Assembly (NCBI GenBank): GCA_902771695.1
Contig: CACXXP010000003.1
Coordinates: 2,640-66,639 of the forward strand
Length of the DNA stretch: 64,000 nt
Source: an uncultured Pseudomonadota bacterium
Lineage (GTDB): Bacteria; Pseudomonadota; Alphaproteobacteria; Rs-D84
Direction: 5' to 3'
How positions within the stretch are numbered: position 1 is the stretch's first letter; each line of letters starts with the position of its first letter. A program made the translations under genes and the position numbers. The notes beneath the pieces are model-generated. The model did no database searches, was not told the DNA's origin, and saw nothing but the letters and a program-made list of their open reading frames with translations. Below, piece by piece: positions 16,217-30,159 of the stretch.

Positions 16217-16344
16217 GTGTTTTTGTCAAAATAATTTTTTAGTCAAATTAAATGCCCCGATTTTCCTAGGAAAACCTGCTTGTTGCCGTTTTTATGGGGT
16301 TGGCATAAAATATGTCTTGTAATAGAGAAAATGGGGGAAATTTG

Positions 16345-16596
16345 ATGACACATGATGATGTTTGGCGCGCGATAGAACGATTCGCAATGGAACATGGAAA
16401 GTCGTGTTCGGGATTGGCACGGTGCAGCGGTTTAGACCCCACAACATTTAACCGCAGCAAGCGTTGGACCAAAGAAGGCCAACCGCGGTGGCCGTCAACC
16501 AACAGTATTTCTAAAATATTGGCGTCCACAGGGGCTTCTATCCAGGAATTTACCAAATTCATAGATAACAAGAACAACGAGCCCCCAAACAGATAA
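16345..16596 (+). CDS. Small helix-turn-helix DNA-binding protein (phage-repressor-like N-terminal domain only)
   Basis: MTHDDVWRAIERFAMEHGKSCSGLARCSGLDPTTFNRSKR...RWPSTNSISKIL. SD GGGGGA precedes the ATG at 16345. Confidence 0.65.
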   Translation: MTHDDVWRAIERFAMEHGKSCSGLARCSGLDPTTFNRSKRWTKEGQPRWPSTNSISKILASTGASIQEFTKFIDNKNNEPPNR

Positions 16597-16613
16597 TTTA
16601 TATATTTATTATT

Positions 16614-16645
16614 GCCGGCGGTATGTGATGCCGGCATTTTTTTAT
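16614..16645 (+). terminator. Intrinsic terminator
   Basis: TGCCGGC-10 nt-GCCGGCA followed by T8. Confidence 0.65.
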
Positions 16646-16680
16646 TGGACAGGTGCTATCTAATAGATTATTCTTGAAAT

Positions 16681-17100
16681 ATGCTGTCGGGAATACGTGT
16701 TTTTTCATCTGATGATTGTTGGATGCATATTGTGTCCGACTTGAATGCAACGTTGGTGGATGATGTAAGGTTTGCTGATGTAAACCTGGATTCGTTGAAT
16801 CTGCGCCTGCCGATTTCGCCAATTGAATTGAAAATGGCGATAATTGCTGCATCAGATGGTGACAATATTATAAAACAGGTTTTCGGAAAACACGTTGAAT
16901 TGTCGCCACTGCAAACACAAATTGTGACCAAACTTTATCAAAGTGGTGGTATGACCACCGAAGAATTGAAAATATCACTTGGGTATGCAGAAACGGCAAA
17001 AACCCACACCGTAGAAACGGCTGTTTACAGTTTGAGAAAATTGTTCGGACATGATTTTATAATTAACGATAACGGAATATTCAGAATTGGCGGGTTATAA
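16681..17100 (+). CDS. OmpR/PhoB-type winged-helix DNA-binding protein without a recognisable receiver domain
   Basis: C-terminal LSPLQTQIVTKLY..MTTEELKISLGY......HTVETAVYSLRKLFG...I.....IFRIGG resembles Trans_reg_C. Confidence 0.55.
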   Translation: MLSGIRVFSSDDCWMHIVSDLNATLVDDVRFADVNLDSLNLRLPISPIELKMAIIAASDGDNIIKQVFGKHVELSPLQTQIVTKLYQSGGMTTEELKISLGYAETAKTHTVETAVYSLRKLFGHDFIINDNGIFRIGGL

Positions 17101-17752
17101 AGTACTATCTTTTGATAAAATATCCAGTACGCAAACATATGCGCACGATATGATTGCAAACGGTAAAGCATCAGATCATATGGTTATCGTTGCGGCGGCT
17201 CAATTCGCAGGTCGTGGGCGATACAGACGTAAATGGGTGTCGCATCATGGAAATGTATATGCCAGTTTTATTTTTAATTCGCCAGAACGAGATCCGCGTC
17301 TGTCTTATGCTATTGCGGTGGCGGTGGCAGAAACGATAATATCATATGGTATATCACCACAGATAAAATGGCCAAACGATATTCTTATTAATAATGCAAA
17401 AATATCTGGGGTGCTGATTGAATATGCCGGGCAATATGTTATTGTCGGAATCGGAATAAATGTTCACACGAATCCGACTGTTCCAGAATATAAAACAACA
17501 CGTTTAGATGAATATGTAAATGTTGATTTAACAGATGTGATATCGCGTCTTGCCAAAAACATAGACAGGTTTATGAAATCTGATTTTGATTCGGTGCGTC
17601 GACGTTGGATGGAACTTGCCGCCGGGTTAAACAAGCTTGTAAAGTATCGTGGTGAAATGGTTGAACTTATCGGCGTTAATGATAATGGTGCGTTGGTCGT
17701 TCGGTGTGGTCCCGAATATTTATTGGTTCATGGTGATGAAATTTTAATGTGA
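17087..17752 (+). CDS. birA: Biotin-[acetyl-CoA-carboxylase] ligase
   Basis: FDKISSTQTYA and QFAGRGRYRRKW (GRGRxGRxW motif). The track start is TTG. Confidence 0.85.
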   Translation: MAGYKVLSFDKISSTQTYAHDMIANGKASDHMVIVAAAQFAGRGRYRRKWVSHHGNVYASFIFNSPERDPRLSYAIAVAVAETIISYGISPQIKWPNDILINNAKISGVLIEYAGQYVIVGIGINVHTNPTVPEYKTTRLDEYVNVDLTDVISRLAKNIDRFMKSDFDSVRRRWMELAAGLNKLVKYRGEMVELIGVNDNGALVVRCGPEYLLVHGDEILM

Positions 17753-17789
17753 TGTATGCCCCGGAAAACATGGTTTTTTTATAAATGTC

Positions 17790-17818
17790 TTGACTTTTGG
17801 GGCGTTTTGTGATACAAT
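17790..17818 (+). promoter_or_regulatory. Near-consensus sigma70 promoter at the head of the phage-like cluster
   Basis: TTGACT (17790-17795), 17-nt spacer, TACAAT (17813-17818). Confidence 0.6.
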
Positions 17819-17843
17819 ATAATACATCAAAAGGAAGAGTTGT

Positions 17844-17869
17844 GTTCACACGTTTGTGTGAATTTTTTT
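17844..17869 (+). terminator. Intrinsic terminator 1 in the leader of the phage-like cluster
   Basis: TTCACAC-gttt-GTGTGAA followed by T7. Confidence 0.6.
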
Positions 17870-17870
17870 A

Positions 17871-17897
17871 TGCCGCACGTCATGTGCGGTTTTTTCT
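17871..17897 (+). terminator. Intrinsic terminator 2 in the leader of the phage-like cluster
   Basis: CCGCAC-gtcat-GTGCGG followed by T6. Confidence 0.6.
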
Positions 17898-17919
17898 TTG
17901 CCCAAATAAGGAAAAAATA

Positions 17920-18330
17920 ATGCAGATGGAAATACCAGAAACGCAAAACGAAACAATTTGTTTGGCGTATAACGTCGCGCGAATCGTTTATGCCGAAACA
18001 TTGGCTGTGTCATTACGCGTTGTGGAAGCATTAACTTCTATGATTTTTAATGCGGCGCACAAAGATATTCACAATATTGCAAAAATATTACGCGATAAAA
18101 ATATTTTTGAATCATTGAATAACGAATCGGTGCGTCATAAATATTTATTTGTTGATGTGTCCAAACATGATTTCCAAATGTGTTTGCGTGTCGCAATGCG
18201 AATGTTGCACGGCAACTTAGGTGATTCTTGTAATCACGCAACAATGTTTCATCGCGATGAATTATTACCAGATTGGGCGGTTGCGCGCGGATATGTCGCC
18301 GACATAGACGGCATATTATTTTACGCATAA
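17920..18330 (+). CDS. Cell-wall hydrolase (SleB/Hydrolase_2-like), putative endolysin
   Basis: The pattern ARIVYAE...ALTSMIFNA ... ATMFH...PDWA ... GILFY resembles Hydrolase_2. SD AAGGAA. An in-frame GTG at 17842 is an alternative start. Confidence 0.6.
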   Translation: MQMEIPETQNETICLAYNVARIVYAETLAVSLRVVEALTSMIFNAAHKDIHNIAKILRDKNIFESLNNESVRHKYLFVDVSKHDFQMCLRVAMRMLHGNLGDSCNHATMFHRDELLPDWAVARGYVADIDGILFYA

Positions 18331-18346
18331 ATGTACAAGGTGATAT

Positions 18347-18535
18347 ATGAGCAGTTTTATTCATGGTGGATTCTTGGCGAATCGCAAGACACAAATAATG
18401 ACATGTGTTGGAATACTGTCCGCATTGTGTACATATTTGGTTGGCGATTCGGATATATACGCCACAATCCAAGCAATCATTGCGGTGTGCGGAGTTTACC
18501 TGTGGCATAAATCAAATAATAACAAAGGAAAATAA
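18347..18535 (+). CDS. Holin-like small membrane protein
   Basis: 62 aa with two predicted TM helices and a charged C-terminus HKSNNNKGK. It lies directly after the lysin. Confidence 0.5.
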   Translation: MSSFIHGGFLANRKTQIMTCVGILSALCTYLVGDSDIYATIQAIIAVCGVYLWHKSNNNKGK

Positions 18536-18536
18536 A

Positions 18537-19193
18537 ATGGAAAATATACCTGAAAAGTTTCTGAACAAAGATGGAACATTAAACAGTGATGCGTTGATAA
18601 AATCATATTCAGAATTAGAAAAGAAAATGGGAAATATGATTTCTGTGCCAGATGAAAAATCTGACGAAGCAGCGCAAACCCGCTTTCGCCGGGCGATTGG
18701 CGTTCCCGACAGTGCAGACGATTATCCGCATAATGAATTGTTTGATAATGAAAATGTGCGACAAGAATTTTATAAAATTGGTTTAACAGGTGCCCAAGTT
18801 GAAAAAATTTACAACATTGCAGAAGAATTTTTATCACCGATTGTTTCTGAAATAATTTCTGTGCAACAAGAATCAAATGCGATTTCAGAATTGAAAAAAT
18901 TTTTTGGTTCTGATGAAAAAATGCGTGATGCATTTATCGCAATAAAATCATTCGGAGAAAAGTTTTTACCAGCCGATGCATTTAATGAACTGTGCGCTAC
19001 ACCCCAGGGAATACAAGGCATATACAAGATGATGCAATCCATGGAACCAAGTGTTGAAACAAATGTTTCGGATGTACAAAATTTAACAGATACAGATTTA
19101 AGAAATATGATGCGTGATCCAAAATATTGGCGTGATCATGATGAAGAATACATACGAAAAATAGAAAACGGATTTAAAAAATTATATTCATGA
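18537..19193 (+). CDS. Putative capsid scaffolding/assembly protein
   Basis: Acidic, helical 218-aa ORF upstream of the capsid gene, in the T7 gp9 position. SD AAAGGAAA. Confidence 0.5.
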   Translation: MENIPEKFLNKDGTLNSDALIKSYSELEKKMGNMISVPDEKSDEAAQTRFRRAIGVPDSADDYPHNELFDNENVRQEFYKIGLTGAQVEKIYNIAEEFLSPIVSEIISVQQESNAISELKKFFGSDEKMRDAFIAIKSFGEKFLPADAFNELCATPQGIQGIYKMMQSMEPSVETNVSDVQNLTDTDLRNMMRDPKYWRDHDEEYIRKIENGFKKLYS

Positions 19194-19313
19194 TGAATAT
19201 TTTTTATAAAAATTTTACTTTTCTGCTTTACTAATTTTTTTCTTTCGTATAAAATAAAATCAAGAACAAAAAAAATTTGTTCTATCCAAAAACAAATACG
19301 AAAGGAGAGAAGA

Positions 19314-19622
19314 ATGGCATTCACATTCTTGAAACCAGCTGCAAAGAAACCAGCTGCAAAAAAACCAGCTGCTAAAAAGCCAGCTGCAAAGAAACCAGCT
19401 GTTAAAAAGCCAGCTGCAAAGAAACCAGCTGCTAAAAAGCCAGCAGTAAAGAAAGTTGCGGCCAAAAAACCAGTCGCAAAGAAAGTTGTTGCAAAGAAAC
19501 CAGCTGCAAAAAAACCAGCTGCAAAGAAAGTTGCAGCAAAAAAACCGGTTGCAAAAAAAGTTGCAGCAAAAAAGCCGGTTGCTAAAAAAGCTTGCGCAAA
19601 AAAATGTGCAAAGAAAAAATAA
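19314..19622 (+). CDS. Histone H1-like lysine/alanine/proline repeat protein
   Basis: MAFTFLK(PAAKK)n...CAKKCAKKK with strong SD GAAAGGAGAG. Resembles the AlgP, Hc1 and BpH class. Confidence 0.75.
19334..19612 (+). repeat. About 18 tandem 15-nt coding repeats (CCAGCTGCAAAGAAA variants)
   Basis: In-frame pentapeptide P/V-A/V-A-K-K units read directly from the sequence. Confidence 0.9.
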
Positions 19623-19641
19623 TATTGCATGATATTATGAA

Positions 19642-19668
19642 ATGCCCGTAAAATCGGGCATTTTTTTT
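19642..19668 (+). terminator. Intrinsic terminator after the H1-like gene
   Basis: ATGCCCG-taaaat-CGGGCAT followed by T8. Confidence 0.7.
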
Positions 19669-19679
19669 GTAAAAATTTT

Positions 19680-19712
19680 CAGTCAGATGAGTATATCTGA
19701 CTGAATTTTTTT
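19680..19712 (+). terminator. Second intrinsic terminator after the H1-like gene
   Basis: CAGTCAGAT-gagtat-ATCTGACTG followed by aaTTTTTTT. Confidence 0.65.
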
Positions 19713-19845
19713 ATTCAACGGATAATCCATTTTTTGATGGACCCAATTTGATTTGTTGTTGGCGTCATACGACATAACCAAAAATAAATTATTTTGTCGG
19801 CAAATTTTTTGCCTTGGTTTAATCATTTTAACAAAAGGAAAGATA

Positions 19846-20664
19846 ATGTCTGTTTCCATAGATCAAGTTTTTATTAAACAATTTGAAGCAGATGTCCATT
19901 TGGCATATCAGCAAATGGGAACCAAACTGCGTTCTACGATTCGCAGTAAATCTGGGGTTGTGGGTACATCTACAACATTTCAAAAAATTGGTAAAGGCAC
20001 GGCCAGCACAAAATCACGTCATGGTATTGTTCCAGTTATGAATCTGAATCATGCGCCGGTTGAATGCACCTTGCAAGATTATTATGCGGGCGATTGGGTT
20101 GATGCATTGGATGAATTAAAAACCAATATAGATGAACGCCGTGTTGTCGCATCCGCGGGAGCATATGCATTGGGACGCAAAACAGATGAATTAATTGTGT
20201 CCGCTATGAATACTGCAACGGCGTATGTTGGTGATTATTCTACAGGTCTTACCAAAACATTGATTTTAAGCGCATTGGAAAAGTTAAACGAAAAAGATGT
20301 TCCAGATGATGGTCGTAGATTCGGTGTTGTCGGTGTAAAACAATGGAATGAATTGTTGGGTATCACAGAATTTTCTTCGGCAGATTATGTCGGTGAAAAT
20401 TTGCCATTTATCAATGGGGCCGAAGCAAGAAAATGGCTTGGCATCACATGGGTTATGTATAACGATTTGCCATTGTCATCGTCAACACATCGTGATTGCT
20501 TTATCTATCACGCATCCAGCATCGGTCATGCATGTGGTCAAGAAGTCAAAACAGATATCACATGGCATGGTGAACGTGCCGCGCACTTTATCAGCAACAG
20601 CATGTCTCAAGGTGCCGTACTGATAGATGGTGATGGTATTGTGCGTGTTAAATGTGGCGAATAA
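19846..20664 (+). CDS. Major capsid protein, T7 gp10-like
   Basis: By-eye pattern match to T7 gp10 recalled from memory: FIKQFEADVHLAYQQ.., ..DELK.NIDERR..A.A..ALGRK.DE.. and C-terminal CFIYHASSIGHA. SD AAAAGGAAAG. Confidence 0.65.
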   Translation: MSVSIDQVFIKQFEADVHLAYQQMGTKLRSTIRSKSGVVGTSTTFQKIGKGTASTKSRHGIVPVMNLNHAPVECTLQDYYAGDWVDALDELKTNIDERRVVASAGAYALGRKTDELIVSAMNTATAYVGDYSTGLTKTLILSALEKLNEKDVPDDGRRFGVVGVKQWNELLGITEFSSADYVGENLPFINGAEARKWLGITWVMYNDLPLSSSTHRDCFIYHASSIGHACGQEVKTDITWHGERAAHFISNSMSQGAVLIDGDGIVRVKCGE

Positions 20665-20682
20665 AATAAAAGGGGGTAAGCA

Positions 20683-20913
20683 ATGGCTTTTCAGAACAAA
20701 AACTTATCAGTAATTGCATATGCAAATGGTTTTACATTATGGCACTATGCGGCAAATGAAACCTTGGCAACAATAACCGCCAGTGGTTATTTCAATATTG
20801 TTAAAACACTGATGAATACTGGGGATGTTATTATCATCAATGGTTCGGATAAAACGTCCATCAAGAAAATAGCAGTTGGCGATAGTGCAGTTACCACCGC
20901 CGCATTAGATTAA
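20683..20913 (+). CDS. Small phage-cluster protein (possible head decoration or accessory protein)
   Basis: 76-aa ORF with SD AAAGGGGG, immediately after the capsid gene. Confidence 0.45.
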   Translation: MAFQNKNLSVIAYANGFTLWHYAANETLATITASGYFNIVKTLMNTGDVIIINGSDKTSIKKIAVGDSAVTTAALD

Positions 20914-20923
20914 TTGTTAGATT

Positions 20924-20942
20924 GGGCCGGATTTTCCGGCCC
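20924..20942 (+). terminator. Hairpin with a weak U-tract (possible attenuating terminator)
   Basis: GGGCCGG-atttt-CCGGCCC followed by gcatttt. Confidence 0.4.
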
Positions 20943-20973
20943 GCATTTTAATTTTAATAAATAGGAATAAAAA

Positions 20974-21492
20974 ATGCTGACGAAAATAGATTTATGTTCA
21001 ATGGCATTGTTAAAACTTGGCGAGAAACCAATCCAATCTTTATCAGAAGATACGGCGGTCGCAAAATTGGGACGGACATTCATAGATGTTGTCATAGATG
21101 AGCTGTTGGCCATGCATCCATGGCGTTTCGCGTGTCAGTCATATGATTTAAATGCGAATACAGATGGAACATTTGATATACCAACAGATGTGTTGCGAAT
21201 CGTCAAGGTCAATGGCCAGATTATGCAAAATAAAATCATTTCACAAAACGACAAAACAACGATAAACGCCATTGTTCGTGTTCCACCAGAAAATTTTCCA
21301 AGTTATTTCGTAGCGGTTGTTGCAACCAGGTTGGCAATGGAATTTTGTATGCCGATTACTTCAGATCAAACGTTGTTTCGGACTTTGGTGGCATTATATG
21401 AAACAGAATTGCAAAATGCGAAGTTTATAGACAGCACAACATCCATCAATCCACGGATAGAAAATTTTTCTTTGATAGATGTTAGATTCTAA
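20974..21492 (+). CDS. Tail tubular protein A / gatekeeper, T7 gp11-like
   Basis: The N-terminus LCSMALLKLGEKPIQSLSED......HPWRFA parallels the remembered T7 gp11 ILASIGEPPVSTLEGD......GWTFN. 172 aa. Confidence 0.55.
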   Translation: MLTKIDLCSMALLKLGEKPIQSLSEDTAVAKLGRTFIDVVIDELLAMHPWRFACQSYDLNANTDGTFDIPTDVLRIVKVNGQIMQNKIISQNDKTTINAIVRVPPENFPSYFVAVVATRLAMEFCMPITSDQTLFRTLVALYETELQNAKFIDSTTSINPRIENFSLIDVRF

Positions 21493-21498
21493 AGGCAT

Positions 21499-23217
21499 AT
21501 GGGGGAAATTATGGGAAATTTTATTAAAACGCAAACATCGTTTGCCAATGGCGAAGTATCGCCAAATTTTTTTGCAAACTCCGATATACATGGTCTTGCC
21601 TATATGGAAAATATGGATGTTATACCCGGTGGTGGTATAGCGCGGCGTGCGGGGTTAAAATCTGTGGCAACCCTGCAATCCCAGGCAAGATTGGTTTCTT
21701 TTTCTGTATCAGAAAATGAGAATTATATTCTTGCCATTACAAATAACAGTATGCGCATATTTGCGAATGACCAATTGGTTCAAGATATTGTTGTGCCGTG
21801 GGCGGCATCTGATTTGCACCTGTTACAATATGCGCAACGATTTGGAACGATGATTTTTGTGCATCCGGATTACAAACCGCAAACGTTATTGCGCGAAAAT
21901 GGAATATTCAAACTTAAAGAGTTTGTGTTTTCTTATAACAATGCATCAGATAATATAAACATGCCATTTATGCGTTTTGAAGATTCAGAAAATATAACGA
22001 TTGATCTTGAAGCTGTGGCAGATGGCGTAAAATTGACCACTAATCATAACTTTTGGACAGCGGATAATGTTTATGGGCACCTGTCCATGTTGGGAAAAAC
22101 ATTTTTGATTATCCGTTATATAGATGAAAAAAATGTGATTGCAACATGTAATGGGGTATTCACATATCCAAATGCACCATTAAGTGATTGGGCCGAGGCC
22201 GTATTCAGTTATCGTCGTGGTTGGCCAACCAGTATCACATTTCACCAGAATCGTTTGGTTTTTGGCGGTTCTAAATCATGGCCGGGCGGCGTATGGATGT
22301 CATGTGTGGGCCAACATATGAACTTTGATACAGGAACAGGGTTAGATGATGAGGCAATATTTTTCACATTGCTGTCTGGACGCCGTCAACATATATGTAC
22401 ACTAATCAGCAGTGATAATTTACAAATCCTTACATCCGAAGGTGAATGGGCTGTATCAAATAAACCACTGACACCGGAATCTGTTGATGTCAAAATGCAT
22501 ACATCTGTGGGCAGTCCCGCGGACATATATTTGCCGCCACAATCCATAGAAGGTAAAACTATCTTTATATCAAAAAATAAAAAAGATATTCGTGAATTGG
22601 CATTGGATGATTTTGGTCAGAATTATAATGCAAATTGTCTGAGTACGATGTCGGCGCATTTAATAAATTTGCCAATAGATATTGCATATAATAAAAATGA
22701 TAAACGTTTGTTTGTTGTTATGAACGATGGAGATATGGCGGTATTAAATCACGATGAATCCGTCGGAATATCAGCGTGGGGGCGTTATACCACAAACGGT
22801 AAATTTTATTCTGTGGCGGTGTGTAATGGACGTACATTTGTTGTGACCAAACGAAATGATAGTTTCTATCTTGAACGATTTGACAATTCAGAAATGGTTG
22901 ATGCAACAAATAAAAAATATACGGTGCGAGCAATTGGTATGCCTATTATGTCGTCGGGGCATAATGTGCGAAAAATGCAAATCAGAAAAATCGTTGCCAG
23001 ATTGCACAATTCCAAAACGTTATTCATAAACAATTGGCGTGCAGAATTACCAACAGAAATATACGCAGACGGTGCAATTGGATATTCGGGTGATGTATCA
23101 CTGAATACCGTCGGTACATGCCGACCGATTGTTGATGCCCCGTGGGAAATATCAACAACCGATGCAATGCCGATGACGGTTCTTGGGGTAACCATTTACG
23201 GCAGATATCAAATATAA
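21499..23217 (+). CDS. Tail tubular protein B / nozzle, T7 gp12-like (shorter)
   Basis: FANGEVSPNFF......RRAGL and FHQNRLVFGGS....W.S.....NF parallel the remembered T7 gp12 GGISQQP....KRPPL and FFRNRLGFLS....NF. Confidence 0.55.
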   Translation: MGEIMGNFIKTQTSFANGEVSPNFFANSDIHGLAYMENMDVIPGGGIARRAGLKSVATLQSQARLVSFSVSENENYILAITNNSMRIFANDQLVQDIVVPWAASDLHLLQYAQRFGTMIFVHPDYKPQTLLRENGIFKLKEFVFSYNNASDNINMPFMRFEDSENITIDLEAVADGVKLTTNHNFWTADNVYGHLSMLGKTFLIIRYIDEKNVIATCNGVFTYPNAPLSDWAEAVFSYRRGWPTSITFHQNRLVFGGSKSWPGGVWMSCVGQHMNFDTGTGLDDEAIFFTLLSGRRQHICTLISSDNLQILTSEGEWAVSNKPLTPESVDVKMHTSVGSPADIYLPPQSIEGKTIFISKNKKDIRELALDDFGQNYNANCLSTMSAHLINLPIDIAYNKNDKRLFVVMNDGDMAVLNHDESVGISAWGRYTTNGKFYSVAVCNGRTFVVTKRNDSFYLERFDNSEMVDATNKKYTVRAIGMPIMSSGHNVRKMQIRKIVARLHNSKTLFINNWRAELPTEIYADGAIGYSGDVSLNTVGTCRPIVDAPWEISTTDAMPMTVLGVTIYGRYQI

Positions 23218-23236
23218 AAACCAAAGGAGGTAAAAT

Positions 23237-23584
23237 ATGGGACAGATTGTTTCAGATGTATCAAATATATTGGAATATCAAAATGACAAAAAGAACGCGG
23301 CCAAGACCAAAAAGCAAATTTTGGCCGATATCGCAAAAGATGATCAGGAAAAACAAAACTTGGTTAACAAAGTTCTTGCAAAGCAACGTGCAAAATATGG
23401 TGCATCGGGCATGGCAACCAAAGGTCAAACCGAAGATGCGGTATTGGCGCGTATGAAACAAGAAACCGAACAACCGTATGATTCTAAAAAAGCGGCAAAT
23501 ATTAAAAAATTGAAAAATACCAAAACAACAAAAAAGAATCTGTTGCTAACCATGCTTGCACGATTGGACAAATTGGTCGGATAA
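23237..23584 (+). CDS. Small Lys-rich coiled-coil phage-cluster protein (gp13-like or small-terminase position)
   Basis: 115-aa ORF with strong SD AAAGGAGG. No domain recognised. Confidence 0.45.
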   Translation: MGQIVSDVSNILEYQNDKKNAAKTKKQILADIAKDDQEKQNLVNKVLAKQRAKYGASGMATKGQTEDAVLARMKQETEQPYDSKKAANIKKLKNTKTTKKNLLLTMLARLDKLVG

Positions 23585-23588
23585 TGCA

Positions 23589-24182
23589 ATGAGTGTATAT
23601 AATCAGTTCCTGGATTCGTGGAATTCGGTTATCGGTTTCACCGCTCCAGAACATCACCACCAAATGACAGATTTCTTGGTGGGTGTCATGAACGGTGGTT
23701 CGCATCATGGATTGTTGATGGCATTCCGGCATTCTGGAAAATCAACAATAGTCGGAATTTTTGCCGCATGCACATTATTTTTGCATCCAGAAACACGCAT
23801 TTTGATATTATCTGCGGAAACTCATTTGGCCACGCGCATGGTGATGCATATTCGTAATATTTTGGAAAATCATCCGTGGTGCAGTGATTTGATTCCGAAA
23901 AACAAACGTGAATGGGCCGAAAACAAAATAACAATCAACAGGCCTGTTGGAATTCGTGAACCATCAGTGGTATGTCAAGGTGTATACGGAAACATAACTG
24001 GTATGCGCGCAGATTTAATAATATGTGACGATGTAGAGGTCCCGAATACATGCAACACGATGCGAAAACGTTCTGGGTTGCGGGATAAATTGCGTGAATT
24101 AGATTTTATACTGTCACCAAACGGAACGATGATTTACATCGGAACGCCACACACATTGGATACGATATACAGAACCGCTTAA
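23589..24182 (+). CDS. Terminase large subunit, N-terminal ATPase fragment
   Basis: Walker A FRHSGKST and Walker B DLIICDDVE. The ORF ends just after IYIGTPHTLDTIY. Confidence 0.7.
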   Translation: MSVYNQFLDSWNSVIGFTAPEHHHQMTDFLVGVMNGGSHHGLLMAFRHSGKSTIVGIFAACTLFLHPETRILILSAETHLATRMVMHIRNILENHPWCSDLIPKNKREWAENKITINRPVGIREPSVVCQGVYGNITGMRADLIICDDVEVPNTCNTMRKRSGLRDKLRELDFILSPNGTMIYIGTPHTLDTIYRTA

Positions 24183-24841
24183 TCTTGTTCGGAATCAGAT
24201 GATGCAGGTAAAGAACTGGTCAACGCATGCAGACGACGTAATAACTTTGTGCCTTCTTCGCCGAACATTGGCAAATATGTTTCATATTCGGGCATATCAA
24301 CCTGAAGTTGTGCACGTAAACGGTCGTTTATTGGTTTATCTACTACCTCGTTGGCATTCAGCCAGATTTTGTACGCATTCCACATACGTGCAATTTGGGT
24401 GAATTTATCAAACAAATCTGTGTCATTGGCCAATATTGCCTGTACAGACATGACCCAATCTTTACCAAAACTACGAATCACAGGTGTGGCAACAAATTTT
24501 TCAAGACCTTGCTGGTCAGGGGTAAAATCATTAATGGCTGTTATCAATTCGCGCAAATCATGTTCCGAAATTTCTGTGTGCAAAGATTTTTCGGCGAATG
24601 CACCACCATATGGCAATAATTCGCGTGCAATAGAATCGACGGGTGTCTTGCCACTGCGTAAATTATTTATATGTTCAACCAGAAACTTACCTGTGGGCAA
24701 CGCGGCAAGTTCATCAAGAATTTCATCCGTTGATTCAGCAATAAAGATCTTGTTTAACGCCACCCAACCACCTTCTATGACATGTGCTTGGCGGTACAAG
24801 TTTAACAATCTTTGTGCGATAACGCTTGCCTTGGCTTTCAT
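24179..24841 (-). CDS. Hypothetical protein (last gene of the dnaB module)
   Basis: 220-aa ORF. Its stop codon overlaps the terminase-N stop codon (24179-24182). No domain recognised. Confidence 0.55.
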   Translation of the reverse strand: MKAKASVIAQRLLNLYRQAHVIEGGWVALNKIFIAESTDEILDELAALPTGKFLVEHINNLRSGKTPVDSIARELLPYGGAFAEKSLHTEISEHDLRELITAINDFTPDQQGLEKFVATPVIRSFGKDWVMSVQAILANDTDLFDKFTQIARMWNAYKIWLNANEVVDKPINDRLRAQLQVDMPEYETYLPMFGEEGTKLLRRLHALTSSLPASSDSEQD

Positions 24842-24870
24842 CTCGTTTAATCCCCCTTGCTTAAACAGGT

Positions 24871-25881
24871 TTATTCAGACAAAACCATTATAACCTTGTG
24901 CATTGTCTGGGCGGTAATTTTTTCATCGGGCGAAACCATTTGACCATATATTTTGCCCTTGGAATCTTTACGAACAACCGCGATATTGGCCTGGATTGCA
25001 TCATCTGGTTTCAATGCTTTGAAATCTGTATCAATAAACACCGCCAAATCACCGACCGTTGCATTGATTTTAGAATCGGCAAACACGTATGATTTTTCCG
25101 GGATAAAACCGCCAAGACGTTTAGAATTCGGAACAATCGCATAAACACCTTTGCGGCCTTCAAGATTTGCCGGGGCATTAATCATCGTTTTGTCAGATTT
25201 TTTGAACGTAATATTTTTACCTTCGGCGCGTCCGAACACCGGAACCAATTTACGACGGGCGTTTTCATATAATTTGGCACTGTATAAATGTGCCTGGGAA
25301 TCACCGAAATCTGCGGTTGAATCACCGGGTGACAACACGGCTTTGACCCGTTCTTTGACCTTGTTCATTTGTTTGGTCAATTCACCGTTTTTGTATAATT
25401 CGGCAATTTTATCAAACATGCTTTCAACCGAGTGAGCAAAAGAACGCGCAAGTGGTTCAATTTCATTTTGATAAACTTCGCGTTGGCCGACCTCTATTTT
25501 ATGGTACACAGACAAAGTCATGCCGGCATCTTTTGCCGCCTGGGCAATTGTTTTTCCAGATTGTTGGCGAATTTTACGCAGACCGCTGCCGAATAATTTC
25601 AGACCGCTGTCTTCATTATCACTCATACGGCGGGTGATTTCATCCTGCCATTTTGATGCGACTTCGTCGGTATCCTTGATGAATATGTCTGAAAGTTTGC
25701 ACCCAAGTATGTTGCAAATATTCAATAACTGTTTTTGATTTAGGCGACGGACACCCTTTTCAATCTTGGAAACAGCCGACAACGACAAACCAGAACGACG
25801 GGCCAGTTCGGTCATTTTCATCCCTGCACCAAGGCGGATGTTACGAATATTATTTGGAAATATGATTTCTTCTTGGGCCAT
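24871..25881 (-). CDS. Dual-HTH XRE-family regulator with a C-terminal CI/LexA-like beta domain
   Basis: Two HTH_XRE-like segments (IRNIRLGAGMKMTELARRSGLSLSAVSKIEKG; LRKIRQQSGKTIAQAAKDAGMTLSVYHKIEVG). The C-terminus starts VPVFGRAEG, like the linker of S24 repressors. SD AAGGAG. Confidence 0.65.
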   Translation of the reverse strand: MAQEEIIFPNNIRNIRLGAGMKMTELARRSGLSLSAVSKIEKGVRRLNQKQLLNICNILGCKLSDIFIKDTDEVASKWQDEITRRMSDNEDSGLKLFGSGLRKIRQQSGKTIAQAAKDAGMTLSVYHKIEVGQREVYQNEIEPLARSFAHSVESMFDKIAELYKNGELTKQMNKVKERVKAVLSPGDSTADFGDSQAHLYSAKLYENARRKLVPVFGRAEGKNITFKKSDKTMINAPANLEGRKGVYAIVPNSKRLGGFIPEKSYVFADSKINATVGDLAVFIDTDFKALKPDDAIQANIAVVRKDSKGKIYGQMVSPDEKITAQTMHKVIMVLSE

Positions 25882-25903
25882 TTAAAACTCCTTGTATAAA
25901 ATC

Positions 25904-25922
25904 TTGACAAAATGATAGTCAA
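25904..25922. promoter_or_regulatory. Palindromic operator-like site in the regulator's promoter region
   Basis: TTGAC-N9-GTCAA lies between the dnaB stop and the regulator start. Confidence 0.35.
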
Positions 25923-25958
25923 TTTTTAGAAACATGGCAAGAAAATAATTATGCGAAA

Positions 25959-27518
25959 TTACAAATCAATATCATCTGGTATCGCATCAATGTCTATGGG
26001 GGTTGGTGCGCCAGATGATTCATCTGATTCTGGGATTGGCGTATCCACAAATTCAGGAACATGATTCGGCATATCGTCCAGATTATCAAATAAACTGAAT
26101 TCCGCCAAGAATGCCAAATGAATCGTGTCGGTGCGACCGTGACGGTTCTTGCCGATAATAAGGTCTGCCTTACCTTTTGCTTTTTCATAGCGCATTTGCC
26201 ATGAATTTACAGATTTTTCATTGGGTGTATTGGAAATTCTGTGCGATGGGTCACGGTTTTGCAGATAATATTCTTCACGGTATGTAAACAGTACGATGTC
26301 AGCATCTTGTTCAATGGACCCCGAATCACGCAAGTCCGCCAATTGTGGACGTTTATCATCGCGTGATTCAACACTGCGTGACAATTGAGATAACGCAATC
26401 ACAGGCACATTTAATTCTTTGGCCAGCATTTTTAACCCACGTGTAATTTCAGATAATTCTTGAACACGATTGTCTTTGTTTTTACCGCCCGGCGAGGTAA
26501 TAAGTTGCAAATAGTCAATCACAATCAGCGCCAAACCATTATATTTGCGGGCCAACCTGCGTGCACGTGTGCGAATCATCGGCACAGACATCCCCGGCGT
26601 GTCGTCAATAAACAATGGAATACGACTGATTGCATCAGAAAATTGGGTCAGTTTCAGAAAATCTTCATCGGTCAAAGATTTGCCTTCGCGCATCGCGGAT
26701 GCCGGAATACGCGATTGTGACGATAAAACACGTGCCGCCAATTCGGATGCGCCCATTTCCAAACTAAAAAATGCAACGGCACCTGTATATTGTGGATTGG
26801 CGCGTCCAGAATATATGGCGTTCGCCGCATTAAATGCGATATTCATTGCCAATGCGGTTTTACCCATACCTGGACGGCCGGCAATGATAATTAAGTTGGA
26901 TTTATGCATACCACTGATTGCATGATCCAAATCGGTCAGACCTGTTGTCAACCCAGATAAATTACCGTCGGCCTTGTACGCGATTTCGGTTTCCGTCAGT
27001 GCCTCTTTTAATGCATTTGCAATTGGAACAACATCGCGTCCGGTTTCGCCGGTTGTCGCCAAATTAAACAGTTTTTGTTCGGCTTTTTCTATTTGTGCCG
27101 ATACCGGATTGTCCAAATCTTCTACAAATGCGTCATCAGTAATGGATTGCCCCAGATTTATCAAATCGCGACGCAGGGCATTATCATGGACGATTCGCGC
27201 ATATTGTTCAACGTTTACAACGGTCGCACTGGCCCCGGCCAATTGGGTCAAGTAATCAACACCGCCCACAGATTCCAATACACCTTGTTGGTCCAAATAA
27301 TTCTTGATAGTGATTATATCAAACTGGGCCCCGGTTGCGAACAAGCGCATCGCCAGTTTATATATTTCTTGATGGGCGGGGTGCGAAAAATCTTCGGGTC
27401 GCAAGAAATCAGAAATCTTTTCTAATGCGCGGTTGCTGACCAATACCGCCGCCAAAACGGCCTGTTCGGCTTCTATATTCGTTGGTAAAGTTTTGGGAGT
27501 GAAGTCCATGTCTGACAT
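25959..27518 (-). CDS. dnaB: Replicative DNA helicase DnaB
   Basis: N-terminal LPTNIEAEQAVLAAVL, Walker A GRPGMGKTA, DYLQL and the RecA-like core. The true start is taken as MSDMDF (27518), not the 605-aa track ORF. Confidence 0.9.
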   Translation of the reverse strand: MSDMDFTPKTLPTNIEAEQAVLAAVLVSNRALEKISDFLRPEDFSHPAHQEIYKLAMRLFATGAQFDIITIKNYLDQQGVLESVGGVDYLTQLAGASATVVNVEQYARIVHDNALRRDLINLGQSITDDAFVEDLDNPVSAQIEKAEQKLFNLATTGETGRDVVPIANALKEALTETEIAYKADGNLSGLTTGLTDLDHAISGMHKSNLIIIAGRPGMGKTALAMNIAFNAANAIYSGRANPQYTGAVAFFSLEMGASELAARVLSSQSRIPASAMREGKSLTDEDFLKLTQFSDAISRIPLFIDDTPGMSVPMIRTRARRLARKYNGLALIVIDYLQLITSPGGKNKDNRVQELSEITRGLKMLAKELNVPVIALSQLSRSVESRDDKRPQLADLRDSGSIEQDADIVLFTYREEYYLQNRDPSHRISNTPNEKSVNSWQMRYEKAKGKADLIIGKNRHGRTDTIHLAFLAEFSLFDNLDDMPNHVPEFVDTPIPESDESSGAPTPIDIDAIPDDIDL

Positions 27519-28350
27519 AGTATATGAAAAAAATGTTTTTTCAACACCTTTTTTGGCTGGGTATGATGAATTGAAAATACCAATAATTGACAATACCGGA
27601 AATCCAGTTTGGCCGGCGGTTTTCCCAATTGACAAGATAAATAAAATCAAAGAAACCGTTGGTGAACGGCATTTTTTGGCCCAAATGATGTTGGAATATG
27701 TGCCAGATGGACGGGTCAGATTGGACCCCGGAACCATTAAAATGTATGACAATGATTTTGATGGTCGTTCATGCAAAATTGGTGATAATCAAATTACCGG
27801 GGTCGGTGTTTATTGGGACCCGTCCAGTGGACGTAAAAATGCCGATAACAGTGTATGTGTTTTGGTGTATCGTGACGATAAAAATAAAAGGGTCTTTATT
27901 CACGATATTTTGTATATGGTTGTACCAGATGCGGTTGAATACCCGCTGTCTTATCAATGTGATTTGGTATTGGATTTTGTGCGGCGGCACCGTGTGCCCA
28001 GTATTTCCATAGAAACAAATGGTATCGGTGGGGCGTTGCCCGAAATAATGCGAACAATTATTTCCCGCGAAAATCGTGGAATACAAATCCGCCCTGTAAA
28101 TAACAGTCGGAATAAACAAAATCGTATTTTAGATGCGATTGAACCATTATTAAATACAGGGCGTCTGTATGCGCATCGGCGAATAACCCAGACCCCAATA
28201 ATATCAGAAATGTTGGCCTGGACGCCATTTGGTGGTGGTGAACACGATGACGGATTGGATGCAATTGCAGGTGCGATTGCAATGCAACCAATTGCGATAC
28301 ATCCAATTGGTCAAAATGTTTTTACTGCAAATACAAACTTTAATGTTTAA
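27508..28350 (+). CDS. Terminase large subunit, C-terminal nuclease fragment
   Basis: RNaseH-like acidic motifs GVYWDPSSG and EHDDGLDAIAGA. The ATG at 27508 has SD GGGAG 8 nt upstream. Confidence 0.65.
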   Translation: MSDIVYEKNVFSTPFLAGYDELKIPIIDNTGNPVWPAVFPIDKINKIKETVGERHFLAQMMLEYVPDGRVRLDPGTIKMYDNDFDGRSCKIGDNQITGVGVYWDPSSGRKNADNSVCVLVYRDDKNKRVFIHDILYMVVPDAVEYPLSYQCDLVLDFVRRHRVPSISIETNGIGGALPEIMRTIISRENRGIQIRPVNNSRNKQNRILDAIEPLLNTGRLYAHRRITQTPIISEMLAWTPFGGGEHDDGLDAIAGAIAMQPIAIHPIGQNVFTANTNFNV

Positions 28351-28372
28351 CAAAAAAAACAAAGGAATAAAA

Positions 28373-29599
28373 ATGAAATACGATTTACAAAAAATGTATT
28401 CACGTGCAATTGCAATGCGTGAACCATGGATTACCCGTTGGGCCGATGCGCGCAAATATACAATGCCGACCACAAACGAAGATTCGGCGATGCTGTTTGA
28501 TGCAACGGCTGCAGATGCCGCAGATAATTTGGCGGCGTGTATATATTCACTATTAACACCGCCGGAATCATTGTGGTTAACCCTGGTTCCCGAAGGCCCC
28601 GATTCCCCAGATGCGTCTGTGGCAACGGCTGCACTGCGCGCAAATCTGAACGATTCTAATTTTTATACGACGGTTCATCAGTGCTATATGGATTTAGTGA
28701 CATTGGGAACCGCGTGTTTGTTCATGGCCGAAAGTCCGATTGGGACATCCAGTGCATTTTCATTTACGGCGATTCCAATGTCAGATATCGCCATTTTACC
28801 GAATGCAGTATTTCATACGGCATCTGTTTCAATTGCGGATGTTATGGCGCGTTATCCAGAATGGACACCAACACATGAAATCGCCGACAAATTAAAGAAA
28901 GATAATGATTTTTCTGTGCGTTTGGTGCAATCGTTGATTGGTACAGATTTTACTGCATGGTTGGATGTCGGGGGCGATATAGAAAACAATATAGTATCGC
29001 GTGGAACATTTGAAACAAATCCATATTTAATTTTTAGGTGGTCGGTAACATCTGGGGAACAATATGGGGTCGGCCCAATATTGCGTGCATTGCCCGATAT
29101 TAAGACAGCAAACAAGGTCGTTGAATTGGTGTTGAAAAACGCGACCATCGCCGTCAGTGGTATATGGCAGGCCGATGATGACGGGGTTATAAACCTGAAT
29201 AATATAAATTTAACCCCAGGCGCAATAATCCCCAAGGCCGTAGGCAGTACAGGTTTAACCCCACTGGCAACGGGTGCAAATTTTGACGTATCACAAATAA
29301 TATTGAAAGATTTGCGTGACCGCATACGGCACACATTACTTGCAGACCGATTGGGATTATTGTCTGATAAAGAAATGACTGCCACAGAAATTCTTGCACG
29401 CAATGCAGATATGTTGCGTATTTTAGGGGCAACGTACGGGCGTTTGTTGCATGAATTTATACGACCATTGTGTGACCGTGGATTGCAGATATTATCACGT
29501 CGTGGCGTCATAGATAAAGTATCACTGCACAGTGATGCAGAATTGAAATATATTGCACCGATTGCGCAAATGGTGGCAGAGAATAATACTCTGATTTAA
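28373..29599 (+). CDS. Portal (head-to-tail connector) protein, T7 gp8-like
   Basis: The N-terminal pattern AMREPWITRWADARKYTMP....DATAADAADNLAA..YSLLTPPESLW is typical of the gp8-type connector family as remembered. 408 aa, follows the terminase. Confidence 0.6.
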   Translation: MKYDLQKMYSRAIAMREPWITRWADARKYTMPTTNEDSAMLFDATAADAADNLAACIYSLLTPPESLWLTLVPEGPDSPDASVATAALRANLNDSNFYTTVHQCYMDLVTLGTACLFMAESPIGTSSAFSFTAIPMSDIAILPNAVFHTASVSIADVMARYPEWTPTHEIADKLKKDNDFSVRLVQSLIGTDFTAWLDVGGDIENNIVSRGTFETNPYLIFRWSVTSGEQYGVGPILRALPDIKTANKVVELVLKNATIAVSGIWQADDDGVINLNNINLTPGAIIPKAVGSTGLTPLATGANFDVSQIILKDLRDRIRHTLLADRLGLLSDKEMTATEILARNADMLRILGATYGRLLHEFIRPLCDRGLQILSRRGVIDKVSLHSDAELKYIAPIAQMVAENNTLI

Positions 29600-29610
29600 C
29601 GAGGATAAAA

Positions 29611-29817
29611 ATGCGAGATATAGAATTGGCATATGCCAAAACTTTTTCTGGGGAATCGGGTGCGATGGTAATATCGCACCTGCGCAAAATAACCATAGAA
29701 CGTGTGTTGGGACCAAATGCCACCGATGCGGAATTACGCGCAACTGAAGGCGCACGTGCATTGGTTCACCAAATAGAAAGTTTAATATTACGGGGGCGCG
29801 AAAATGCAAAAACATAA
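29611..29817 (+). CDS. Small phage-cluster protein
   Basis: 68-aa ORF with SD GAGGA. It overlaps the next ORF by 14 nt. Confidence 0.45.
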   Translation: MRDIELAYAKTFSGESGAMVISHLRKITIERVLGPNATDAELRATEGARALVHQIESLILRGRENAKT

Positions 29818-30061
29818 TGGAATTGCGGGAATCATTGACACATTACGCAACGGGTGGTTTTTAATAGCGTTTATCGCAGGACTGATTTATTGGGTGGCAC
29901 GTCAAGATAATGCGTTGGTGGAACTGGACAGGTTGACCGTTCGTATGACGACTTTGGAAAATCGCACAACAGTACTGGAAACAGGAATAGGGCAACTGCA
30001 ATTAAAGATAGATGGAATAAAGGAAGATTTAACCCTGATTAAAACGGCCGTTATTAAATAA
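29804..30061 (+). CDS. Small membrane-anchored coiled-coil protein (holin/spanin-like)
   Basis: One TM helix (WFLIAFIAGLIYWV) followed by heptad-like LTVRMTTLENRTTVLETGIGQLQLKIDGI. Confidence 0.45.
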   Translation: MQKHNGIAGIIDTLRNGWFLIAFIAGLIYWVARQDNALVELDRLTVRMTTLENRTTVLETGIGQLQLKIDGIKEDLTLIKTAVIK

Positions 30062-30159
30062 TTTATTGATATTTATTTCTTCGTTTGTCCCCAAAATTCC
30101 CATTGACACATAGTTGCGATTTCCTTCAAAATGTTATTGAGCAACGGAAAGGATACCCC

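Follow-up and report, generated by a model that had tools for sequence, protein, structure and literature searches.

In the pR'-tR'-Q system of phage lambda, and likewise in phages 82, 21 and P22 (gp23), a strong sigma-70 promoter that needs no activator is followed by an intrinsic terminator and gives a short RNA; the lambda late operon opens with the lysis cassette, continues with the head genes and has further internal terminators to be passed. Phage HK022 has put, two stem-loops in the nascent RNA near the promoter that lack U-tracts and act by binding polymerase. To our knowledge, switches that work by antitermination have been described in only a few families of phages and, since 2024, in a single gene transfer agent (GTA). 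Control of a GTA cluster by antitermination has its precedent in Caulobacter crescentus, where the promoter needs GafY together with upstream-bound IHF, GafZ binds a palindrome between the -35 and -10 boxes, and the terminator consists of three 150-bp G+C-rich repeats past the first gene (PMC11150451). The first podovirus-like GTA, FpGTA of Faecalibacterium, was reported in 2026 (PMC12946183). Here we analyse a stretch of 64,000 nucleotides (the window) from an uncultured alphaproteobacterium of the GTDB lineage Rs-D84 (assembly GCA_902771695.1, contig CACXXP010000003.1, positions 2,640 to 66,639), in which a consensus promoter and two tandem intrinsic terminators precede an endolysin gene and the structural genes of a podovirus-type cluster. 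This promoter-terminator leader is very probably the gate that decides whether the lysis and capsid genes are expressed. More specifically, it could be the control leader of the lysis and structural operon of a chromosome-fixed, podovirus-derived GTA-like element, working by conditional processive antitermination, a reading to which we give about even credence.

All counts across species derive from a scan with one genome per species. It returned more than 545 genome stretches with relatives of the capsid gene, the best 80 of which were used (L001-L080); these are metagenome-assembled genomes labelled Candidatus Enterousia, Alphaproteobacteria or "Rickettsiales", with capsids 83-97% identical at the amino acid level. 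The window sequence was also matched in DNA metagenomes of cattle and other guts. The region between birA, the host gene directly upstream, and the lysin gene was compared in 64 of the 65 loci that hold both genes, with spacers of 144-197 nt.

The promoter, which with its preceding base reads CTTGACTTTTGGGGCGTTTTGTGATACAAT (17789-17818), has the TTGACT and TACAAT boxes 17 bp apart given in the preliminary description and, in addition, the TG of an extended -10 element one base 5' of the -10 box. It agrees with the consensus at 10 of 12 positions, and its full pattern has a single perfect match in the 64 kb, with no further copy in the window. TTGAC[T/A], a spacer of exactly 17 bp and TAnnnT with TG at -15/-14 recur in all 64 loci with a comparable birA-lysin spacer. 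Position by position, 65 sequences are invariant or nearly so at C-36, TTGACTT, T-17, T-15, G-14, T-12, A-11 and T-7. The centre of the promoter spacer (-27 to -21) is variable (0.2-0.7 bit), and the birA stop codon abuts the -35 box in many, more distant species; for these two reasons little room remains for control of initiation. The initial transcribed region, (C)AUCAAnAG..RRARAUUnU, is moderately conserved: each position carries about 1 bit, compared to 0.2-0.5 bit for those of the promoter spacer. Its purine-rich start is presumably akin to the first transcribed bases of strong early promoters of phages, T7 A1 among them. On these alignments, the conserved sequence left for a regulator is that from +1 to about +26 alone.

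A DnaA-box-like motif (TTATNCACA) is located at 17838-17851 (+15 to +26) and comprises the bases 5' of hairpin 1 together with its 5' arm. Of 65 sequences, 17 have a site with at most two mismatches to TTATCCACA, where shuffles predict 1.6, and locus L064 has a perfect match; given the relatedness of the sequences and a stem that is conserved in any case, we treat the likeness as a lead only. No skew minimum that would mark a replication origin was found near the leader. In this strain only, AUGCCCC after the birA stop can pair with GGGGCGU of the promoter spacer (17757-17806), which would loop out the -35 box in read-through RNA; the pairing is absent from other species.

About 20-25 nt past the predicted start, hairpin 1 (GTTCACAC-GTTT-GTGTGAAT) leads into T7, and two bases past this first terminator hairpin 2 (GCCGCAC-GTCAT-GTGCGGT) leads into T6. 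The two back-to-back hairpin and U-tract terminators previously proposed upstream of the lysin ATG at 17920 are thus both present, and the leader folds into precisely these two hairpins (-27.4 kcal/mol, z = -2.6). For the single sequence, the chance control was only moderate (32 terminator-like sites in a 13-kb region versus 12.9 expected); the decisive control is the comparative one. A strict per-sequence scan found two terminators, each a hairpin with a run of 4-8 T, in 63 of 65 sequences, the first starting at +19 to +24; the two exceptions have one imperfect stem each. With 14 pairs specified in the alignment, 89.4% of stem cells are paired, compared to 75.3% after shuffling and at most 72% with the partners slid. 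Compensatory changes on both sides are seen in 13 of the 14 pairs (6/7 in terminator 1, 7/7 in terminator 2). The covariation score is 0.518, a value reached by none of 500 shuffles, versus 0.261 for the control, and RNAalifold recovers both helices, with compensatory change in 12 of 12 predicted pairs. Between species, hairpin 1 takes forms such as UUCACAC/GUGUGAA, UCCGCAA/UUGCGGA and CGCACCG/GGUGUG, and hairpin 2 forms such as GCCGCAC/GUGCGGU, GCCACGC/GCGUGGC, GGUCGCA/UGCGACC and CCCUGUG/CACAGGG; the U-tracts of both are invariant. By this measure it is the structure of the hairpins, not their sequence, that is under selection, and the comparison indicates that promoter and terminators alike are genuine, conserved parts of an untranslated leader of the lysin gene.

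A distant lineage (L106, capsid 76% identical) keeps the promoter, as TTGATT-17-TGcTATACT, together with the purine-rich start region and terminator 1, and lacks terminator 2. The ~18-kb high-G+C relatives described below are without a comparable promoter-terminator leader. Rfam returned three tRNAs only for the whole window at gathering score, and a permissive scan of 17700-19900 gave only chance terminator-like matches below threshold.

An ATG equivalent to that at 17920, with a Shine-Dalgarno sequence (AAGGA in the window), is found in about 60 of 64 loci. Just 22-50 nt separate it from terminator 2; because this leaves no room for a promoter, the lysis and structural genes would be reachable by terminator read-through alone. 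Only two other junctions in the cluster have conserved terminators, that 5' of the capsid gene and that past p76. The three internal terminators noted previously, two past the H1-like gene and a weaker one at about 20924-20942, were all recovered and are conserved across loci: at least two lie between the scaffold and capsid genes in 62 of 70 loci, and the p76-gp11 junction has one in 67 of 81 sequences.

The stem sequence of hairpin B (CAGTCAGAT / GTCTGACTG) is conserved well past the needs of pairing, and this hairpin may also serve as a palindrome for protein binding or as a signal for processing. The capsid 5' untranslated region (UTR) that follows has no Rfam family match. Two candidate elements there were rejected. 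The first was a capsid promoter with GATAAT at 19721-19726 and CTGACT as -35 box: a covarying RNA stem starts at its last base, and there is no purine at the expected start. The second was an 8-nt pairing between the 5' end of the leader and a hairpin loop in the capsid 5' region, which is found in this window and fails in other species.

RNA matching the window at ~99% identity was obtained from four rumen metatranscriptomes, and RNA of structural genes past several terminators was readily detected. Depth was ~40 in the capsid gene, 2-6 in the lysin and scaffold genes, 4-10 in the nozzle and terminase genes, with 7-10 for the nozzle alone, and 0 in the birA operon; past the terminator at 20923 it falls from ~40 to 0-~10. 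Snap-back contigs from two runs follow the lysin gene and fold back at 17889 and 17891, which is what the arrival of reverse transcriptase at the 5' end of an RNA, or at a stable hairpin, would produce. A contig of another run leads from inside birA through the promoter and terminator 1 and ends at 17888. Since RNA is found directly past terminator 2, where no promoter fits, read-through does happen. In each of the four runs, the capsid contig starts where hairpin B has its 3' foot (19704, 19707, 19712 and 19713), and no RNA contig covers 19538-19703. An assembly artefact was rejected as the cause of these limits: DNA metagenome contigs cross both sites unbroken, so that the limits are properties of the RNA. 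Both RNA limits fall between G/A-N and A/U-U-U at the foot of a terminator hairpin; RNase E prefers to cut between R-N and W-U-U. This suggests that read-through transcripts may be cleaved at the feet of the terminator hairpins.

We infer the start site, the termination efficiency, the conditionality, the factor and the processing as follows. The full-consensus sigma-70 promoter, with its UP-like stretch, -35 box and TG-extended -10 box, would start RNA at about 17825/17826, and in the nascent RNA hairpin 1 would form at +20 and hairpin 2, likewise followed by a U-tract, at about +47. By default, most polymerases would drop an RNA of 45-70 nt, leaving the endolysin and holin-like genes silent. 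Expression of the operon would need passage of both leader terminators, of the two before the capsid gene and of the one after it. The likeliest means of passage would be conditional processive antitermination set up at or just past the promoter, following the lambda pR'-tR'-Q logic, by a factor or an RNA element beyond recognition by homology. Read-through transcripts would then be cleaved in the U-tract adjoining the 3' foot of a terminator hairpin, and a stable capsid segment would accumulate. The conserved anatomy as a whole points to the terminators as the control point: a perfect promoter that leaves no space for an operator, a pair of terminators, two genes with a lethal effect, and structural genes with more terminators among them. 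As the endolysin and holin-like genes come first past the leader, leaky expression would be costly, which favours gating. Conditional processive antitermination would be the simplest way to switch the operon on in a few cells, a proposal that has in our view as much for it as against it. We are more doubtful of the wider proposal, offered tentatively, that an undescribed podovirus-type GTA occurs throughout the lineage, with a tandem-terminator leader released by antitermination unrelated to Q, N, put or GafZ; the agent of such release could be a new protein (p220, p94 and p139 being candidates) or the conserved 5' leader RNA or DNA, including the DnaA-box-like element.

Several observations weigh against antitermination. 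Profile searches of the neighbouring proteins in Pfam, PHROGs and NCBIfam gave no match to Q, N, GafZ, an RfaH/LoaP-type or other antiterminator, in agreement with the earlier remark that no obvious Q-like gene is present; in the same searches no family match to GafY/GafZ homologues was obtained, no direct comparison to the GafY/GafZ sequences having been made. The regulators named as candidates in the preliminary description, the helix-turn-helix (HTH) and winged-helix proteins at 16345-17100 and the dual-HTH protein at 24871-25881, are indeed DNA-binding proteins, of ordinary types and without any mark of an antiterminator. The model of p139 (pLDDT 89) has a small N-terminal domain and an ordinary OmpR/PhoB-type winged helix, with weak matches only. 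For p220 the model (pLDDT 82) consists of helices throughout and found no structural match with an E-value below 0.4; neither model matched a Q-like fold. Protein p336 has two XRE-type HTH domains and an apparently LexA/CI-like C-terminus, the latter by our own reading of the sequence and not as the result of a tool. In other genomes, ~18-kb elements made up of structural genes only have a relative of p94 at their left end, on the opposite strand, which suggests that p94 belonged to the ancestral element.

Between the -35 and -10 boxes, the 65 sequences have no conserved motif, palindrome or operator, and the only -10-like element of the initial transcribed region is a weak RARATT at +12 to +17, with no clear pause element. 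Capsid RNA, ~10-fold more abundant than that of lysin and scaffold, begins at a separate 5' limit (19704-19713), so that a single read-through transcript is not the whole story. A separate capsid start would account for the abundance of capsid RNA equally well, and leaky terminators can reproduce the RNA depths with no factor. The short leader RNA was not seen in the RNA contigs, the standard libraries behind them being of a kind that would lose it. It was likewise missing from the size-fractionated rumen small-RNA library X34, which yielded only the low-complexity H1-like region and has minimal coverage of the organism. The RNA evidence as a whole is coarse, consisting of assembled contigs, not read ends, from a few public metatranscriptomes. 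The antitermination-type late control first proposed for this locus thus keeps its conserved promoter and terminators, its lambda-like layout and its read-through RNA, and lacks a recognisable factor, a conserved spacer and an explanation of the capsid RNA excess from one transcript.

The leader might instead be a constitutive, factor-independent attenuator, its terminators damping a very strong promoter so that lysin and holin are made at a low, unvarying rate, with a start of its own for the capsid gene; the post-p76 terminator would then set the capsid-to-tail ratio, as T-phi does in T7, and the E. coli greA leader (GraL) would be comparable. The depths given above for the lysin gene, the capsid gene and the region past 20923 fit serial partial termination, and if the capsid message starts separately or is more stable, this scheme fits them equally well with no extra factor. 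Neither an antiterminator nor an operator is recognisable, L106 manages with one terminator, and the weak U-tract at 20944-20952 suggests a partial terminator. We nevertheless consider such attenuation the less likely reading, though a serious rival: no conserved sigma-70 promoter is placed to start capsid RNA at 19704-19713, the GATAAT at 19721-19726 being unsuitable; a strong promoter leaking constitutively into a holin-endolysin pair would be an odd design for a producer-killing element; and a throttle leaves unexplained why a perfect promoter, and not a weaker one, is kept in 64 of 64 species.

A small-RNA gene, whose 45-70-nt product acts in trans while lysin expression is a by-product of leakage, or a leader of dual function, is a further serious rival, though a rather improbable one. 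Its conserved 5' region is purine-rich, unlike an anti-Shine-Dalgarno sequence, pairing with the start regions of 13 neighbouring genes (62-64 species for most) is no better than that of a shuffled seed, and there is no Rfam family match. The RNA was not seen in the size-fractionated library, given the minimal coverage there, and the invariable place of the leader before an otherwise promoterless gene in every species would go unexplained. These points stand against what is otherwise the classic anatomy of a small-RNA gene, i.e. a strong promoter, a conserved +1 to +19 (~1 bit per position) and two U-tailed hairpins, with non-stem sequence more conserved than a bare terminator requires.

It is less probable still that the hairpins are the terminators of the p94-p139-birA operon, with the promoter a separate feature or a chance match. 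With exact spacing in 64 of 64 loci the promoter is no chance match; it lies upstream of the hairpins, so that its own transcripts must meet them, and close relatives have an extra hairpin directly past birA. In distant species there is no other terminator past birA, and the RNA contig from inside birA reaches 17888; the leader probably serves as terminator of the birA operon too, which is compatible with antitermination and not an alternative to it. Finally, a lysin start at the in-frame GTG at 17842, raised in the preliminary description as a way in which the hairpins might be just coding sequence, is practically untenable: the frame is open from 17797 to the ATG in this window, but the GTG position reads GTA, CTA, ATA or TTA in many other species and offers no conserved start codon for a leader peptide either, the ATG with its Shine-Dalgarno sequence is conserved, the lengths of the birA-lysin spacer vary by non-multiples of three, and substitutions in the leader keep base pairs, not codons.

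The gene order around the leader, p94-p139-birA-[leader]-lysin-holin-scaffold-(H1)-capsid-p76-gp11-gp12-p115-terN, is constant in ~65 species-level genomes, as is that of p220, p336 and dnaB on the opposite strand 3' of terN in those loci (see the table). Compared to the capsid, birA is only 48-86% identical across loci, and the lysin down to 42%. A phage structural and lysis module held at one chromosomal site through many speciations is, on this comparative evidence, the signature of a domesticated GTA-like element. The location at one chromosomal site, vertical inheritance and purifying selection by which a GTA is recognised were all found, in ~65 genomes. No replication or integration genes were seen adjoining the cluster and no phage polymerase gene within it. 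A search for near-identical phage DNA found none, the nearest cultured phages being Pelagibacter podophages with 33-45% capsid identity. We found no description in the literature of a podovirus-type GTA in this lineage. The whole cluster (16312-32034) is probably a podovirus-type GTA, and probably one of a new type.

Features of the leader and the surrounding gene cluster, with positions in the window.
Feature	Position	Strand	Description
p94	16345-16596	+	Cro/CI-type HTH, ~80 aa; candidate regulator
p139	16681-17100	+	OmpR/PhoB-like winged helix; clade-restricted; candidate regulator
birA-type biotin-protein ligase	17087-17752	+	Pfam PF03099, E 9e-21; host gene directly upstream; syntenic in 65 loci
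UP-like A/T-rich stretch	17778-17789	+	Followed by invariant C at -36; position-wise conservation, 65 sequences
Sigma-70-type promoter	17790-17818	+	-35 TTGACT 17790-17795; 17-bp spacer; TG 17810-17811; -10 TACAAT 17813-17818; T at -17
Predicted start and initial transcribed region	17825-17843	+	Start C17825/A17826, placed from the -10 box; purine-rich
Terminator 1	17844-17869	+	8-bp hairpin 17844-17863 + U7; would yield ~45-nt RNA
Terminator 2	17872-17896	+	7-8-bp hairpin 17872-17890, 5 G-C pairs, + U6; would yield ~70-nt RNA
RNA boundary	17888-17891	+	3' foot of terminator 2; one contig end, two snap-back turns
Endolysin-like cell-wall hydrolase	17920-18330	+	Pfam Hydrolase_2 (weak); phrog_938 endolysin; first gene past leader
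Holin-like protein	18347-18535	+	62 aa; probably a holin; two hydrophobic segments, GD.D turn, basic C-terminus; in 68 loci; unannotated-looking open reading frame (ORF)
T7-type scaffold (capsid assembly) protein	18537-19193	+	Pfam PF05396
H1/HC2-like protein	19314-19622	+	Lys/Ala/Pro-rich; Pfam PF07382, E 2e-17; low-complexity sequence
Internal terminator A	19639-19668	+	GCCCG..CGGGC stem (hairpin 19639-19664) + U8; conserved, covarying stems
Hairpin B	19676-19712	+	12-bp stem CAGTCAGAU..GUCUGACUG + U7 (hairpin 19678-19705)
Capsid 5' UTR	19713-19842	+	Conserved, structured; GGAUAAU[covarying stem]ACCC, GGCGCA..UGCAUAACCA, further hairpin; 80-locus alignment
Major capsid protein	19843-20664	+	Pfam PF19821, E 6e-72; 83-97% aa identity over 80 genome loci; RNA depth ~40
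p76		+	76-aa protein between capsid and gp11 genes
Post-capsid/p76 terminator	20923-20952	+	Hairpin 20923-20943; weak U-tract 20944-20952
gp11-like adaptor, gp12-like nozzle, p115, large terminase N-terminal half	20974-24182	+	p115: 115-aa basic protein
p220 and p336	24179-25881	-	Candidate regulators
Portal	28229-29599		Past second terminase half
Orphan protein	30085-32034		649 aa; past second terminase half

The large terminase is split between 23556-24182 and 27508-28350, both on the forward strand, which match contiguous parts (273-460 and 468-702) of one PHROG profile. The halves are parted by a 3.3-kb segment on the opposite strand (24179-27521) with p220, the double-HTH protein p336 and the replicative helicase dnaB. 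This split is kept in all related loci that reach that far, and the halves are adjacent in the distant ~18-kb relatives. At 27508-27521, the starts of the terminase C-terminal ORF (+) and of dnaB (-) overlap in the palindrome ATGTCTGACAT, both proteins starting MSD, and each promoter would have to sit within the coding sequence of the other gene; the arrangement looks like the scar of an ancient inversion. The ~18-kb contigs come from a viral-contig collection (L121, L124, L126, L129-L133) and have only structural and packaging genes, with a capsid ~60% identical, together with a terminal p94-like HTH gene. L124, the sole ~18-kb contig checked for base composition, is high in G+C. Such contigs may represent a wider family of small podovirus-type elements or satellites. 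Within the H1-like gene (19503-19591), RNA contigs of two runs (X32, X29) have joints that go back 42 nt, which indicates that the copy number of a 42-nt (14-codon) repeat varies between strains.

The leader is a compact case, 110 bp with one promoter and two terminators, for which 64 natural variants define the bases that matter, and it precedes a holin-endolysin pair and a complete podovirus-type set of head, tail and packaging genes. If read-through is conditional, a new antiterminator is to be found; if it is not, the locus would be a clean natural case of tandem-terminator attenuation of a lethal gene pair. The probable new GTA type occurs in abundant uncultured gut and rumen bacteria, with its RNA present in vivo, and bears on gene movement there.

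Among described leaders that release small RNAs, those of E. coli greA (GraL) and of terminated riboswitches such as Listeria SreA share a promoter, a terminator in the 5' leader, and short and full RNAs from one start. This likeness is anatomical only; the Rfam greA-leader model scored 18 bits against a threshold of 60, and such leaders are not known to have a tandem terminator pair or to gate a lysis cassette. HK022 put is similar in its two promoter-proximal stem-loops and in the lack of a recognisable protein factor; unlike in put, an invariant U-tract follows each hairpin here, as is characteristic of genuine terminators. The terminator after p76 resembles T-phi of T7, a partial terminator directly past the major capsid gene, and RNA depth drops across it here; the polymerase that it stops would be that of the host and not one of phage origin. 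FpGTA, likened by description only, is also a podovirus-type GTA-like element of a gut bacterium, with a host in a different phylum (PMC12946183).

The resemblance to the Caulobacter GTA pointed out initially extends to a domesticated phage-like cluster in an alphaproteobacterium whose polymerase must pass terminators inside the cluster (PMC11150451). It does not extend to the activator- and IHF-dependent promoter or to the spacer palindrome: here the promoter is of consensus type, often with no room upstream and with an unconserved spacer, and the terminators are hairpins with U-tracts in the leader. From lambda the locus differs in its tandem terminators at ~+45 and ~+70, against one at +194. 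It has no Q homologue, no conserved element between the -35 and -10 boxes and no clear -10-like pause signal, and its podovirus-type structural module is part of a chromosome-fixed element, not of a phage. The lambda pR'-tR' layout recognised at the outset is nevertheless mirrored, with promoter, promoter-proximal terminator, lysis genes and structural genes all present and in the same order.

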